In this document: positions 500-50,742 of the stretch, one piece after another | Layout: the number at the start of each line of letters is the position of its first letter | How positions within the stretch are numbered: the stretch's first letter is position 1 | Assembly: GCA_045545475.1 (NCBI GenBank) | Contig: JAZQAZ010000040.1 | Location: forward strand, 9,136-73,135 | Length of the DNA stretch: 64,000 nt | Reading direction: 5' to 3' | Origin: Clostridia bacterium | GTDB lineage: Bacteria > Bacillota > Clostridia > CAKSNL01 > HGM11501 | The notes under the pieces: model-generated | Databases searched by the model: none | What the model was told of the DNA's origin: nothing | What the model saw: only the letters and a program-made list of their open reading frames with translations | Translations under genes and position numbers: made by a program

Positions 500-835
500 T
501 CCCTTTCATATCCTCAAAGCAAATTTGCAAAATAAATTTCACTCTTTGCTTTTTCGCTCTTAAACTTTACTCATTTACAAGGCTTTAAAAAACACTTACT
601 TTCGAAAGTGTTATGTACACCCGTGAGAAAGCTGCAAATTCATTTGAGGCTTTCAAACGGGTCCGAACACTCCGCAGAGTGTTCCCCCGCAAAACCATTT
701 TTGGGTTTTGATTTCTCTTTAGTCCAAACAGCTAAATATGAGAAAAAACAACGACATCGAGTCTGTTGTTTTTTGCTCAAAAATTTTTACGCCCATTTCG
801 GGCTAAGAAAATTTTTATCGCATTCCTTTTCGGAC

Positions 836-1591
836 TTATTCACGCTGTTCAGACTTCGTTTCGCTAATTGCTTCCTTGCAATTAGCTACACTCACATACT
901 TAAACCACATATATCCGTACCGTGTCACCTTACACTCAACCAACTTGTATCCCGCCGGTGCCTTCGGAGGCTTCGCCTCGGAATACTCCCTCTTAATCTC
1001 CTTCGGTTCCTCGCTCTCAGGATGCTTCACATTCCTCGAAGCTTTGTACCTGTGGCCACCAAACTCCGGTTTCCAATGGTCAAATAGATAGTTGGCGAGC
1101 CCGGTGTAGTCCTGCCCATAATCAACGCCGTCATACTTGTTATGCTCTCGCAGGTGCTCAATACGGCATATCTCGCCATAGGGCCATTGCTTAATTATGT
1201 ACTCTTCCGGAATCCCGTCGGATATCATGTGCAGGTGATAACGGTCTGTCACCGCTCCACGGCCGATATAAATGTTAATCTTCGCATCCGGGTACTTATA
1301 AAGGAGACGTCTGTAAAACCTGTCACGGACCGTCTTCGCTTCCTTGTATGTATGAATTTCGTTCTCCGTGTCAAACGTTAATGTCGAATATAAGCTCTCG
1401 GGAGAATAGTTTTCATTAATCAAACGCGCGTGGCGACGCCTTGAAATACCGTCCCTATGGGCTTGTCTCTCCGCCTCATCCTTAAAGCGGAGACGAGGCA
1501 GCGTCGTTTTGACGCTCCCTCGTGATGATATAGAATATATTTCCTGCTCAAGTACCGCACCCGAAAATGTGCGTTTTTTAACCTTTCTCAT
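836..1591 (-). CDS. HUH endonuclease, rolling-circle Rep-like protein
   Basis: Motif I STLTF, motif II YHLHMI (HUH) and motif III LANYLFDH in the correct order. Confidence 0.7.
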   Translation of the reverse strand: MRKVKKRTFSGAVLEQEIYSISSRGSVKTTLPRLRFKDEAERQAHRDGISRRRHARLINENYSPESLYSTLTFDTENEIHTYKEAKTVRDRFYRRLLYKYPDAKINIYIGRGAVTDRYHLHMISDGIPEEYIIKQWPYGEICRIEHLREHNKYDGVDYGQDYTGLANYLFDHWKPEFGGHRYKASRNVKHPESEEPKEIKREYSEAKPPKAPAGYKLVECKVTRYGYMWFKYVSVANCKEAISETKSEQRE

Positions 1592-3497: not shown

Positions 3498-3836
3498 TCA
3501 CTCCTCTGCAATGTTACCGGTGTCTTCGTTGTTCTCTTTACACTCTGTTCTGTCATTCTGAGCGGAGCGAAGAATCTCTTTCTCCGCCTCATCCAACGAT
3601 ATATCTTCTATCTCCGCCCTTACTTCAAGGCAATACAGATAGTCACCCATATGCTTTTTCTGCTCTTTAAGTAAATCAATACTGCACGAAGGCGTAAAGT
3701 TAAGTGTTTTTGCCTCATACTTAACTACCATTTTGTGAAGCTTTTCGTATCTTATCTTCGCCTGCATATACTCTGCAATAAATCTATCCTTATAGTCCGC
3801 ACTGTTCATCATCTTAACAGTATCTTTCAATTCCAT
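3498..3836 (-). CDS. crAss001_48-like phage protein
   Basis: MELKDTVKMMNSADYKDRFIAEY.Q.KIRYEKL...LLKEQKKHMGDYLYCLEVRAEIE pattern. Confidence 0.7.
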   Translation of the reverse strand: MELKDTVKMMNSADYKDRFIAEYMQAKIRYEKLHKMVVKYEAKTLNFTPSCSIDLLKEQKKHMGDYLYCLEVRAEIEDISLDEAEKEILRSAQNDRTECKENNEDTGNIAEE

Positions 3837-3885
3837 AAAATCAACTTCTTTCTTAAAATCCTTAAACAGTTTTATAAAAATATCA

Positions 3886-4042
3886 TTATACAGATGAGGA
3901 TTTGCACCTCATATAGAATGATTAACACCGCATCCTCGCCTTACGCGACTGCTTTTTCCCTACTCAAGAGGTGTCGGGGGCAGTGGTTCATTCCAGTACT
4001 GTTGCCCCTTTTTCCTGCGTCTACCTATTCCGCCACCATATA
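3886..4042 (-). ncRNA. tRNA-like RNA with ~100-nt insert replacing the anticodon and variable arms
   Basis: Acceptor TATATGG/CTGTATA, Leu-type D arm TGGCGGAATAGGTAGACGC, T arm TGAGG-TGCAAAT-CCTCA. Confidence 0.6.
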
Positions 4043-4205
4043 CCTTAAAATCGTTCTTTTATCATTTACCCGTACCTTCTTTCCTCCAGTCCCGCTCCAT
4101 AGCTCTGAACTTCATCCGGCACCGTTTCCAAGTCTTATTTTTCCTCATCCATCGCCGGCAATAAAACTTATACCTGATTTTCTTAAACATAACCTGCCCT
4201 CACGT

Positions 4206-5522
4206 TCACTTAAACAATTCGTGTGTACCGTCGCACAAAGCCTTTTCTTCGTCTGACATTTCATATCCCAATAGCTCAAGTTTTTTATATACGAAGTCAA
4301 GATTTTCGTTTTTCTTATATGTAGGAAGGCTTGTCCCATACCCCTGATAATAATATCCGTTGTTTTTGTCATCATTGCTCATCGCATAAATCATAAGTGC
4401 AAGTATATTCCCCGGTTCCTTCTCGGCATAATCCTGCAGTTTTTCGTTATCAACTGAATATTTATGCTTGGTATACTTTTCTCCGAGTTTTTCACATAAA
4501 AGTTCTACATTAGCACCGTAAATGTGATGTCCTGTAAGGTCTCTTTCGATAAACTCTCTCAGCCATAAATTCAAAACGCTCTCATACTTTTTCCCGGAAG
4601 AAAACTCACTTATAAATTCTCTTCTCATATGATAAGCCTTCTCCGTCACTTTCCCAAGTGCTGCATTTCGTTCCTCTACCTTAATTTCTTTGGGAGATTT
4701 CTTAGGCTTTTCCGCCTTCTTTTTAGGCTTCTTAACATACAGTCTGTAATTGTTGCTTCTTACGTTCCAAAAGTATTCTTTCCCTTCCTTGACTTTATCG
4801 GAAAAGAATCCTTCTGTATATTCTTCCGCACTTACGGATGCGACTTCCTCATAGTCTCCCGCCCAGGTATAAATAGAATCGTCCTTCTTTGCACTGATTT
4901 TTTTCATCTCGGCTTTAACTTTCGGCATTGTCGCATCAAGCGCCTGCTTTTCAAGTGCCTCTCTGAGTTTCCAGTTAAAATTATTCGTACCCACACATTC
5001 AAGCACTTTGTTTCTTTCTTTTTCATTAACTATGTCGGAAACTTTAATATAATCTTCAAGCTTTCCGCCACGCTCTTCCGCCTGCTGAAACTTCGCCTTG
5101 TCGAGATTTAACAGCTTAAGTCTTCGCTGTACGGTAGACTGAGAAAAACCTATCTTTTCTGAAATCTGCAACTCTGTATCTCCTAGGTCAAGCATCATCT
5201 GTATGCCTTCAGCTTCTTCGTATTTTGTAAGGTCAGACCTTTGCATATTTTCCAGGAGCATTGTCGCTATCTGCTCCTTATAGCTCATCCCTGTCGCCAC
5301 GGCACAAGGTAACTCTTTAAGTCCCGCCGCTTTTGCCGCCGCCAGTCTTCTGTGTCCGATTATAACGGTATATCCGTCCTTTTCAGGAACAACCGTTAAA
5401 TTCTGCATTATACCGCTTCTGGCAACCGAAGCGGTAAGCTCTGTAAGGTCGCCAAGTTCTTTTCTCGGATTGTCTTTGTGCGGCCTCAATAAATCAATAC
5501 TTATATTCTTAATTTCATTCAT
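4206..5522 (-). CDS. ParB/RepB/Spo0J-family phage protein
   Basis: ParBc domain: LRPHKDNPRK, GIMQNLTV, IGHRRLAAA, ENMQRSDL, followed by HTH. Confidence 0.88.
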   Translation of the reverse strand: MNEIKNISIDLLRPHKDNPRKELGDLTELTASVARSGIMQNLTVVPEKDGYTVIIGHRRLAAAKAAGLKELPCAVATGMSYKEQIATMLLENMQRSDLTKYEEAEGIQMMLDLGDTELQISEKIGFSQSTVQRRLKLLNLDKAKFQQAEERGGKLEDYIKVSDIVNEKERNKVLECVGTNNFNWKLREALEKQALDATMPKVKAEMKKISAKKDDSIYTWAGDYEEVASVSAEEYTEGFFSDKVKEGKEYFWNVRSNNYRLYVKKPKKKAEKPKKSPKEIKVEERNAALGKVTEKAYHMRREFISEFSSGKKYESVLNLWLREFIERDLTGHHIYGANVELLCEKLGEKYTKHKYSVDNEKLQDYAEKEPGNILALMIYAMSNDDKNNGYYYQGYGTSLPTYKKNENLDFVYKKLELLGYEMSDEEKALCDGTHELFK

Positions 5523-14053: not shown

Positions 14054-14129
14054 TGGTGACCCATCGGAGATTCGAACTCCGGACACCTTGATTAAAAGTC
14101 AAGTGCTCTGCCAACTGAGCTAATGGATC
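14054..14129 (-). tRNA. tRNA-Lys (UUU); probable prophage attachment site
   Basis: GATCCATTAGCTCAGTTGG...CTTGA-CTTTTAA-TCAAG...GTTCGAATC...CCA. Confidence 0.97.
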
Positions 14130-14136
14130 ATATTAT

Positions 14137-14211
14137 TGGCTGGGCTGGCTGGACTCGAACCAGCGAATGCCAGAGTCAAAGTCTGGTGCCTTACCACTTG
14201 GCGACAGCCCA
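14137..14211 (-). tRNA. tRNA-Gln (UUG)
   Basis: TGGGCTGTCGCCAAGTGGTAAGGC...CTTTGAC...CCA. Confidence 0.97.
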
Positions 14212-14246
14212 GTATAACTCAAGGCGTAATACCAATATAAAAAAAA

Positions 14247-14324
14247 TGGGGTGGATAGTGGGACTCGAACCCCCGGCCTCCAGAGCCACAATCTGGCGCG
14301 CTAGCCAACTGCCCCATACCCACC
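14247..14324 (-). tRNA. tRNA-His (GUG)
   Basis: Anticodon loop TTGTGGC, G-1, CCA end. Confidence 0.95.
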
Positions 14325-14333
14325 ATAAAAAAA

Positions 14334-14410
14334 TGGCGTGCCTGCGGGGACTCGAACCCAGGACCTACTGCTTAGAAGGCAGTTGCTCTATCCAGCTGAG
14401 CTACAGGCAC
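14334..14410 (-). tRNA. tRNA-Arg (UCU)
   Basis: Anticodon loop CTTCTAA, TTCGAG T loop, CCA. Confidence 0.97.
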
Positions 14411-14417
14411 AAAATAA

Positions 14418-14491
14418 TGGAGCGGGTGATGGGAATCGAACCCACGCGATCAGCTTGGAAGGCTGAGATTCTACCATTGAACTACACCCGC
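14418..14491 (-). tRNA. tRNA-Gly (UCC)
   Basis: GCGGGTGTAGTTCAATGG...CTTCCAA...CCA. Confidence 0.97.
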
Positions 14492-49865: not shown

Positions 49866-50328
49866 AAAACGCCTATAACAAGTTCAAATCTCTCATAAAA
49901 ATTAAAAAGGAAAAGTCATTCTAAAGAACAACTTTTCTTTTTTGGCGGAGTAGGAGAGATTTGAAACGTAAACGTCCACTCAAAAACATATAAGCCTGTA
50001 GCGTTCGCAAGCTCACTTTCAGGCTTCTTGTTTTCTCCCTTTTCGCGTTCCCTTCATCCGCCACCGGCGGCGGTCACGCTCAAACCCCCGCCGGTACCCG
50101 TCGCTCGAGTTCAAATCTTATGCATATAAAACAAAAAAGCACATCCTTTCGGATATGCTTTTTTGTTGGCGGAGTAGGAGAGATTTGAGGCGCAAAGCTT
50201 CGCTTTGTCAGCCCTTCGGCGTTTTAGCAAAACGCCTATGACAAGTTCAAATCTCTCGTAAAAATTAAAAAGGAAAAGTCATCCTAAAGAACAACTTTTC
50301 CTTTTTGGCGGAGTAGGAGAGATTTGAA
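49866..50328 (-). repeat. tRNA-Ser 3'-end-linked repeats
   Basis: TGGCGGAGTAGGAGAGATTTGA at 49943, 50167 and 50306; ~100-bp direct repeat 49866..49965 / 50229..50328. Confidence 0.85.
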
Positions 50329-50397
50329 CTCTCGCGCCGGTTTCCCGACCTACGCCCTTAGCAGGGGCGCCTCTTCGGCCAACTTGAGTACTACTCC
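50306..50397 (-). tRNA. tRNA-Ser (GCU)
   Basis: Loop CTGCTAA, long variable arm, GCCA end. Confidence 0.96.
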
Positions 50398-50452
50398 AAG
50401 ATATAGCCGCAGCTTTCTGCACACTTATTAAATTGTCGCCTGAATAAAAAAA

Positions 50453-50541
50453 TGGCGGAGAGGGTGGGATTCGAACCCACGCGCCCTTTCGGACAAACGG
50501 TTTTCAAGACCGCCTCGTTATGACCACTTCGATACCCCTCC
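50453..50541 (-). tRNA. tRNA-Ser (UGA)
   Basis: Loop CTTGAAA, long variable arm, GCCA end. Confidence 0.96.
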
Positions 50542-50556
50542 GCAGTCACAAAAGGT

Positions 50557-50647
50557 ATTATAACATCTTTTCATTTGTTTGTCAACTGTTTTTTTACAGA
50601 AAATCCTGAAAAAAACTCTTGACATCCGCCCCATTTTTTGCTATAAT
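50557..50647. promoter_or_regulatory. Divergent sigma-A promoters for tRNA genes
   Basis: Minus TTGACA-17-TATAAT (50585..50557); plus TTGACA-17-TATAAT (50619..50647). Confidence 0.85.
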
Positions 50648-50665
50648 AGCTTTTGCATGAGATTT

Positions 50666-50742
50666 GGACCATTAGCTCAGTTGGTTAGAGCAACCGGCTC
50701 ATAACCGGTCGGTCCGGGGTTCGAGTCCCTGATGGTCCACCA
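50666..50742 (+). tRNA. tRNA with CAU anticodon, probably tRNA-Ile2
   Basis: GGACCATTAGCTCAGTTGGTTAGAGC...CTCATAA...CCA; body resembles Firmicute Ile2, not initiator. Confidence 0.9.

Follow-up and report, generated by a model that had tools for sequence, protein, structure and literature searches.

A large family of tRNA-Leu-like phage RNAs with a hypervariable insert and no recognisable anticodon arm

A 64,000-nucleotide (nt) stretch of a Clostridia bacterium contig (JAZQAZ010000040.1, positions 9,136 to 73,135; the window) carries, on its minus strand at 3886..4042, a 157-nt element that begins like a leucine transfer RNA (tRNA-Leu) and has about 105 nt inserted between its D arm and its T arm. 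What kind of RNA does this locus encode? The original prediction, made from the letters alone, had described a prophage tRNA mimic in which a multi-branched domain replaces the anticodon arm. The best explanation for the observations reported here is that the element belongs to a large phage-borne RNA family that is derived from tRNA-Leu, does not decode, is probably uncharged and acts as a tRNA mimic; a probability of about 0.5 is assigned to this reading as a whole. Its parts differ in strength. That the structured RNA is real and that the window copy is a member of the family is close to certain, and tRNA-like processing of the RNA to a stable product is probable. Action of that product as a mimic or decoy is a tentative and rather doubtful suggestion.

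The anatomy of the window copy is set out below. Element positions (p) are 4043 minus the window coordinate, with the 5' end at 4042. At least 314 distinct relatives of 90-178 nt were found in viral contigs (three gap ranges of a search pattern pooled, as described below); counts out of 314 and subsets of them refer to the matches listed, the true total being at least 314.

3886..4042, minus strand: whole tRNA-Leu-like element, 157 nt, seen in the sequence and matched by the full covariance model R1 (74.8 bits)
4036..4042, minus strand: 5' strand of the acceptor stem, UAUAUGG (p1-7), pairing with 3887-3893; the helix covaries in the family
4017..4035, minus strand: U8, G9 and the tRNA-Leu-type D arm GCG-G-AAUAGGUAG-A-CGC (p8-26), the same as the D arm of real tRNA-Leu(UAA) genes (loci L033 and L167)
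3995..4016, minus strand: linker after the D arm (p27-48), without an anticodon stem-loop; variable in the family, and no anticodon arm was found by the intron option of ARAGORN
3988..3994, minus strand: 5' strand of the closing helix, GGAAUGA (p49-55), pairing with 3915-3921 in 7 pairs including one G-U
3922..3987, minus strand: variable inner domain (p56-121), with no motif common to the family
3936-3948, minus strand: hairpin UCGC-GUAAG-GCGA (p95-107) inside the variable inner domain, with one compensatory change in a relative
3915..3921, minus strand: 3' strand of the closing helix, UCAUUCU (p122-128), ending exactly before the conserved AU, as in most members
3913..3914, minus strand: conserved AU preceding the T stem (p129-130); AU in 284/314 members, U in 95/95 aligned sequences
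3894..3912, minus strand: T arm (p131-149) with a 6-base-pair (bp) stem, AUGAGG/CCUCAU, and loop UGCAAAU; G at the U55 position; the stem covaries in the family
3887..3893, minus strand: 3' strand of the acceptor stem, CUGUAUA (p150-156), pairing with 4036-4042
3886, minus strand: A at the discriminator position (p157); UGAU comes next, hence no encoded CCA

The 7-bp acceptor stem, the Leu-type D arm and the non-canonical T loop that had been predicted on the minus strand are all in the sequence (4042..3886), and the further claim that there is neither an encoded CCA nor an anticodon loop also held, no anticodon arm being found. Two of the seven acceptor pairs are G-U (U5-G152 and G6-U151), and the sixth T-stem pair is A131-U149. 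The U of the conserved AU is a likely partner of A15, as an analogue of the Levitt pair. DNA contigs from metagenomes were aligned to the window, and three of these relative contigs cover the element. In all three (3/3) a U5>C change turns the U5-G152 wobble into C-G, and in 2/3 a U151>C change turns the G6-U151 wobble into G-C.

The element was not recognised as a member of a known RNA class. ARAGORN left it uncalled under the default, intron and transfer-messenger RNA (tmRNA) options and at the 90% setting, and an 80% threshold produced two implausible models only; the eight true tRNAs of the window were called by ARAGORN and scored 48-71 bits in Rfam. Rfam 15 gave no gathering-score match on the window, a sensitive scan of 3700-4250 gave nothing better than E = 4, and the canonical tRNA model (RF00005; gathering threshold 29 bits) had no match at E <= 10 in the same interval. 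By canonical tRNA criteria, the acceptor stem and a G18G19 D arm are present, the T stem has 6 bp and not 5, and the loop is UGCAAAU and not of the UUC type. The same tools were applied to relatives: in 20 member loci scanned with Rfam the element itself had no match at E <= 1, and ARAGORN called 0 of the 107 shortest members a tRNA. A tmRNA was rejected, as neither ARAGORN -m nor Rfam detected one. A tRNA-Leu(UAA) gene with a group I intron was also rejected, given that ARAGORN -i found no exons, Rfam found no intron and members are as short as 90 nt. The predicted exclusion of tmRNA and of an intron-bearing tRNA is consistent with these results.

Conventional searches did not lead from the window copy to its relatives. 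With the window element as query, BLAST gave no match in the phage collection and only a 22-nt chance match in 13 other genomes of the host family or order, a pattern joining the D arm to the window's own GUAAG hairpin had zero matches, and BLAST with a family member (L082) as the query also found nothing. Neighbouring genes gave no better lead: the ParB-like protein encoded beside the element had no relative among the viral contigs, and none of 28 viral loci with relatives of the other neighbour, a crAss001_48-like gene, held the element or a ParB-like neighbour. A class-wide genome BLAST returned only short D-arm matches, some in real tRNA-Leu genes and others at places where ARAGORN calls no tRNA. 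The latter share the layout of the window copy, each having its own perfectly paired 7-bp acceptor stem, the same D arm and an unrelated insert; their T stems differ and their T loop, UGCAAAU, is identical.

Viral contigs were searched for the D-loop motif followed, at one of three ranges of distance, by the T-loop motif, and it was this search that yielded the relatives counted above. Applied to a collection of one genome per species, the pattern matched 90 loci. The majority belong to Bacillota (Listeria, Paenibacillus, lactobacilli, Weissella and many Clostridia), and a few to metagenome-assembled genomes with other labels. BLAST with two members as queries matched 41 records of Listeria phages and 30 of mainly Lactobacillus phages, most of which have no annotated feature beneath the match; carriers include the Lactiplantibacillus plantarum phages phiJL-1, Sha1 and Lenus. 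The element of Listeria phage LP-101, for example, is unannotated and lies between a RinA-family regulator and genes that precede an HNH endonuclease, and that of phage P70 lies within an unannotated intergenic gap.

The search pattern contained no stems except for two G-C pairs beside the T loop. Covariation was counted over 95 aligned sequences, with the acceptor stem, the D stem and the 6-bp T stem pooled. The stems pair in 97.8% of cells, compared with 73.9% in column shuffles and 36-47% in slid controls. Double-sided changes number 366 against 92 expected, and they occur at all 7 acceptor pairs and at 4/6 T-stem pairs; 0/500 shuffles reach the observed values. All seven acceptor pairs are formed in 258/314 members and all six T-stem pairs in 292/314, and U8 is present in 314/314 though it lies outside the search pattern. 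The sixth T-stem pair is G-C in 80 sequences, A-U in 8 and C-G in 4, with other combinations elsewhere, and the six-pair stem extends the acceptor/T stack to 13 bp from the 12 bp of ordinary tRNAs. A further pair, -1:73, is formed in 90/134 cluster representatives, and pairing farther out is at background. Because pairing stops after 7-8 pairs, the acceptor stem is a helix of defined length and no part of a longer stem.

A covariance model, R1, was built from the family alignment. R1 aligns over its full length to the window copy (3886-4042, minus strand; E about 1e-20), whose score is inside the range of other members (53-88 bits), whereas real tRNA-Leu genes score 23-46 bits and the host's own two tRNA-Leu genes 26.1 and 23.6 bits. 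The window copy has each of the features by which the family is defined, namely the 7-bp acceptor stem, U8, the Leu-type D arm, the AU, the 6-bp T stem and the UGCAAAU loop. R1 also found two extra members without use of the pattern; both have the UGCAAAU loop, and one has a compensatory C-G to U-A change in its D stem.

These results bear on one competing explanation of the locus, in which an ordinary gene has been broken or interrupted. It could be a tRNA-Leu pseudogene that received a random insertion, a tRNA-Leu gene with an intron, or a small tmRNA. The first 26 nt of the element are indeed those of a tRNA-Leu gene and its folding energy is unremarkable. However, none of the 314 listed relatives has an anticodon arm, and they have covarying derived characters in common; the 90-nt members are too short to hold an anticodon arm and an intron, the intron and tmRNA options of ARAGORN gave nothing credible, and Rfam found no group I intron, tmRNA or tRNA match. 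This explanation is effectively excluded: with their common derived characters and covarying stems, the homologues form a family and are no ordinary tRNA-Leu genes into which something was inserted at random. The central claim of the original prediction, a phage tRNA mimic with a large insert in place of the anticodon arm, is on the same grounds borne out as a family. Four features of tRNA-Leu are retained by the family: the acceptor stem of 7 bp, U8, the Leu-type D arm and the residues that build the elbow. Specific to it are the 6-bp T stem, G in place of U55, the loss of the anticodon arm, and a short linker with a long hypervariable helix at the position of the variable arm.

The insert itself is hypervariable. 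The insert sequences of 184 members fall into 136 clusters, no conserved motif was found among them (no k-mer stands out), and no loop motif common to the inserts was found; the distance between the D and T motifs ranges from 43 to 131 nt. The linker after the D arm is variable in sequence and is 5-78 nt long across the family. In many members the next helix begins only 5-10 nt beyond the D stem, too close for an anticodon arm to fit in. An uninterrupted closing helix of at least 6 bp that ends right before the AU is present in 59% of members, compared with 18% after shuffling and 16% with shifted end points, and in the window copy it is the helix p49-55/122-128, directly 5' of the AU. In topology the insert corresponds to the long variable arm by which class II tRNAs are marked, greatly enlarged, and the anticodon arm is reduced to the linker.

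For the window copy, a multi-branched domain with three named helices had originally been proposed. All three are present in the sequence and in its minimum-free-energy fold. The UCGC/GCGA hairpin is supported by a compensatory change of C96-G106 to U-A in one relative contig (X4). In the same contig GACACC/GGUGUU is broken by C70>A, and GGGGCA/UGCCCC is without comparative support and would cross the closing helix. The specific multi-branched fold was therefore not upheld: the insert is hypervariable, and the feature common to the family is the closing helix, which the prediction had not listed.

A pseudoknot between the linker and the insert was rejected as a family feature, since such pairing does not rise above that of shuffled sequences (median p 0.47; 0/54 members at p <= 0.05). 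A few subgroups have covarying pairs of this kind, and a pseudoknot is possible in subgroups. In another set of members (the L044 group, L048, L057, L091, L144, L147, L150 and L032 at 572-696) the insert contains a hairpin with a canonical T-arm sequence, of the GGUUCGAAUCC type. Some of these T-arm-like hairpins are flanked by a short acceptor-like stem, which makes them tRNA-like minihelices nested in the element.

A conserved body around a hypervariable interior raises the possibility that the tRNA-like part is a scaffold and that the insert is the effector, for instance a base-pairing small RNA or a ligand of a specific host or phage molecule. The contrast between the body and the 136 clusters of inserts speaks for this explanation, which is also consistent with the covarying insert helices of some subgroups (e.g. 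L078/L109/L090 and L079/L118), with the compensatory change in the window hairpin (p95-107) and with the second, T-arm-like minihelix of some inserts. However, the complementarity of the window insert to its own genome is at the level of chance: the search for an antisense target gave only chance-level 13-14-mers, the best 14-mers having E = 0.76. The inserts have no loop motif in common, linker-insert pairing in the 54 members resembles that of shuffled sequences, and the need for a Leu-type body is left without explanation. An effector scaffold is regarded as unlikely. As a separate observation, the 14-mer at element positions 45-58 has three same-sense copies in the host genome (C19:1948-1961, C10:149557-149570 and C2:38344-38357), each with E = 0.76 and at chance level.

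The genomic setting of the window copy is that of a phage. A 369-nt gap, within which the element is found, separates a ParB-like gene upstream (4206-5522) from a crAss001_48-like gene downstream (3498-3836), all on the minus strand. YopX-like and replication-initiator-like genes follow farther downstream on the same strand, and genes for the small and large terminase subunits, portal, major head and tail fibre proteins are found just beyond the window. The surrounding DNA is a prophage or phage genome, in agreement with the predicted prophage context. The gap had also been described as free of open reading frames (ORFs), which is only partly right: a 42-amino-acid (aa) ORF (4062-4190, minus strand) upstream of the element fills most of the space between the ParB-like gene and the element, and a 173-aa antisense ORF (3735-4256, plus strand) runs across the element. 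Neither has a Pfam family. The 42-aa product is extremely basic and rich in K, R and W; one relative contig has a 1-nt insertion within this ORF, after 4079, and it is therefore probably not coding.

No promoter-like or terminator-like site was found on the minus strand around the window copy, and the copy stands outside any tRNA cluster, its neighbours being the ParB-like and crAss001_48-like genes. The window also contains two ordinary host tRNA clusters, Lys, Gln, His, Arg and Gly at 14054-14491 and Ser, Ser and Met at 50306-50742, which are unrelated to the element.

Across the family, the fetched flanks of 32/119 loci contain tRNA genes, all on the strand of the element, and in several large arrays the element is spaced as a tRNA would be: that of L082 begins 2 nt after tRNA-Gln and ends 9 nt before tRNA-Glu, and the corresponding distances in L057 are 7 and 10 nt. 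Of 142 candidate flanking ORFs, 96 were submitted to PHROGs, mostly omitting the shortest, and 51/53 of those matched are on the strand of the element. In 14 loci a late activator of the ArpU/RinA, Alt or sigma type lies upstream and terminase or HNH genes lie downstream; a variety of unrelated neighbours also occurs (DNA polymerase, ligase, single-stranded DNA-binding protein, endolysin and head proteins). A terminator-like site occurs within 90 nt downstream of 33/176 members, compared with 9 upstream and 14 in a reverse-complement control. Placement on the coding strand and in tRNA arrays fits co-transcription and excision by tRNA-processing enzymes, and the predicted processing by RNase P and RNase Z likewise fits the place of relatives inside tRNA arrays.

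Such a placement would also be expected if the element were punctuation acting in cis, that is, if the tRNA-like fold served as a cutting site for RNase P and RNase Z, or as a stabilising end, in a polycistronic phage transcript and the excised RNA had no role of its own. The element lies between genes and on the coding strand, no promoter or terminator of its own is seen near the window copy, the insert has no conserved sequence, the gene contexts are many and unrelated, and in the 14 loci it falls between the late activator and the packaging genes. Yet any tRNA or minihelix would do as a cutting site. This explanation does not account for the retention of the Leu-type D loop, G55, the sixth T-stem pair and the AU over hundreds of divergent phages, nor for the presence of the element inside arrays already rich in tRNA cutting sites, and a terminator-like site follows only 33/176 members, with 14 in the control. 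Among the competing explanations this processing or stability signal is placed first, although it is not a likely one; the effector scaffold comes next, and a chargeable molecule after that.

The last of these would be a tRNA-Leu-like RNA to which CCA is added, which is leucylated by leucyl-tRNA synthetase (LeuRS) and which is used outside decoding (for example to titrate LeuRS or to donate leucine). Bacterial LeuRS does not read the anticodon and depends on A73 and on contacts in the D and T loops. The D arm of the element is identical to that of real tRNA-Leu(UAA) genes, A15, the U before the T stem, G18G19 and C56 are retained, and the discriminator is A in the window copy and in 151/314 members. 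In the remaining 163/314, however, it is U (105), G (31) or C (27), so that the position is not conserved. CCA follows the element in 4/314 members, about the rate expected by chance, whereas it is encoded by 38/40 neighbouring phage tRNAs in three arrays (17/17 in L057, 14/14 in L082 and 7/9 in L117) whose elements lack it. The pair -1:73 is frequent. In addition, G replaces U55 and the acceptor/T stack has one pair more than it should; with these two features, leucylation as a rule looks unlikely for the family overall. As judged from the sequences, the family is probably not aminoacylated, leucylation of the window copy is possible given its discriminator A, and a chargeable tRNA-Leu-like RNA is an improbable account of the family.

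The favoured reading is that of a probably uncharged, non-decoding tRNA mimic. In this model, the element would be transcribed together with the surrounding phage genes, RNase P would cut on its 5' side, and RNase Z or a similar enzyme would cut on its 3' side. The product would persist as a stable L-shaped RNA, unable to decode and probably not aminoacylated, and its tRNA-Leu-like upper body could then act as a ligand, competitor or decoy for a tRNA-binding factor. Retention of the Leu-type D loop, of G55 and of the additional T-stem pair, combined with free variation in whatever a synthetase reading the acceptor end or the ribosome would require, argues for a specific partner that reads the elbow. 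Candidates for such a partner are a host defence enzyme directed at tRNAs, LeuRS or a different enzyme specific for tRNA-Leu, and a phage protein encoded elsewhere, none of which is supported by linkage; the decoy role suggested in the original prediction is a guess.

Several observations weigh against this reading. Transcription, processing and the RNA ends are all things that we infer. The 13-14 bp acceptor/T stack and the frequent -1:73 pair differ from the standard RNase P substrate, and the folding energy of the window copy is about that of shuffled sequence (z = -0.07). No partner protein was linked by gene neighbourhood in the examined loci, the contexts of which are diverse. The family is rare in bacterial genomes, a search with R1 finding a member in 2/150 other sampled genomes of the phylum. 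Finally, the D-loop and T-loop motifs formed part of the search patterns, and their near-invariance is partly the result of selection by the search. When candidates were selected by the T arm only, the exact D-arm motif was present in 53/114 distinct sequences, 32 had one to three substitutions and 29 had no match within three substitutions; the last group comprises indels, D-loop insertions and chance matches in coding sequence. The D arm is therefore strongly, but not absolutely, conserved.

Divergent copies were encountered at several loci. In L551, L533 and L590, all selected by the T arm, the D loop is split by an insertion of tens of nt or is cut to AAUAGUAGAC with a single G. L039 has a degenerate second copy (1132-1252) with a 3-nt D-loop deletion and the T loop UGAAAUU. 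In L032 (G152:C3, minus strand, about 1660-570), a tRNA-Leu(UAA) gene, a truncated 5' end of the element, a full copy, an ORF of about 230 aa and a divergent second copy follow one another. Each of the three 5' ends has the same leader of about 25 nt in front of it, and this leader resembles a ribosome-binding site with an ATG. The layout looks like the outcome of recombination between copies, or a gene cassette flanked by copies.

Other structured RNAs adjoin the element at a few loci. A full ROOL RNA (260.7 bits; 667-1248, plus strand) ends 14 nt upstream of the element of L061 (1262-1385, plus strand), the only one of 20 Rfam-scanned loci (1/20) to contain ROOL. In two Listeria prophages (L112, 1611-1776, minus strand; L077, 1703-1915, minus strand) the small RNA rliG (RF02415) is directly upstream of the element or fused to it. 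In L112 the last ~100 positions of the rliG model are missing and the sequence continues into the acceptor stem of the element; in L077 rli62 overlaps the rliG match. A study of phage phi10403S describes rliG as expressed in lysogeny and dispensable for virion production (PMC7397523).

It is instructive to compare the family with known tRNA-like RNAs. With bacterial class II tRNA-Leu, and tRNA-Leu(UAA) in particular, it shares the 7-bp acceptor stem, U8, an identical D arm (GGCGGAAUAGGUAGACGC in L033 and L167) and the T-loop bases U54, C56 and A58. In both, the place of the variable arm is occupied by a helix, with 1-2 nt between that helix and the T stem. The element differs from them in its lack of an anticodon arm and of CCA, its 6-bp T stem, G55, its variable discriminator and a variable-arm helix of 40-130 nt. 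In tmRNA the anticodon arm has been lost and a long helix enters 5' of the T arm, and by inference the tRNA-like domain of that molecule resembles the element in combining an acceptor/T-arm module with such a helix; the element nevertheless has a full D arm, is 90-178 nt long, and has neither a tag reading frame nor conserved pseudoknots. YrlA, a Y RNA-like molecule (RF02553), is likewise a bacterial or phage non-coding RNA that imitates the tRNA elbow, but it ends in a Ro-binding stem and not in an acceptor stem. The YrlA model had no match on the window at E <= 10, and its weak matches at member loci fall on ordinary tRNA arrays, outside the element.

Among RNAs that have long been known, those of phage T4 called species 1 and species 2 (rnaC and rnaD) are the nearest analogues. 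They are small stable RNAs of about 120-140 nt encoded in the phage tRNA cluster, on the strand of the tRNAs, and are processed by RNase P. The tRNA genes in the flanks of 32/119 element loci, with some elements inside arrays, recall this arrangement. The 3' end of rnaC consists of a canonical T arm (loop UUCGAAU) and an acceptor-like strand with 5/7 positions paired by eye. Unlike the element, rnaC has no Leu-type D arm and rnaD ends in CCA; R1 had no hit at E <= 1 on the T4 locus (L161), and no sequence likeness to rnaC or rnaD was seen by eye. Although tRNA-like RNAs have been known in phage T4 since the 1970s, to our knowledge no general class of phage tRNA-like RNAs has been defined.

The family is apparently undescribed. 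No published description was found in full-text searches of the literature, and the family may be among the 10,006 viral candidates of PMC10690425, the supplementary files of which could not be searched. The text of that 2023 catalogue of candidate structured RNAs mentions tRNA-like candidates in general terms (PMC10690425).

The family is sharply defined, easily searched and hundreds of members strong, and it is missed by ARAGORN and Rfam 15, which makes it relevant to annotation. In many temperate phages it accounts for the recurrent blank intergenic region that lies between the late activator and the genes for packaging, and it provides a natural tRNA scaffold that tolerates inserts of 40-130 nt. 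As members occur in cultivable and genetically tractable phages of Listeria and Lactobacillus, the family offers an experimental handle on the use of tRNA look-alikes by phages. A bolder version of the mimic reading, and an unlikely one at present, is that the phages which infect Bacillota possess an RNA dedicated to mimicking the upper body of class II tRNA: a tRNA-Leu that has lost its anticodon arm and is unfit for EF-Tu, for modification to pseudouridine-55 and for charging, which binds a host factor that recognises tRNAs and thereby blunts tRNA-directed immunity or takes over a tRNA-Leu-specific enzyme. The hypervariable arm would then be either a spacer that drifts freely or a second, strain-specific recognition surface. 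If this is true, hundreds of phage lineages would carry a new class of molecule in which RNA serves counter-defence or host takeover.

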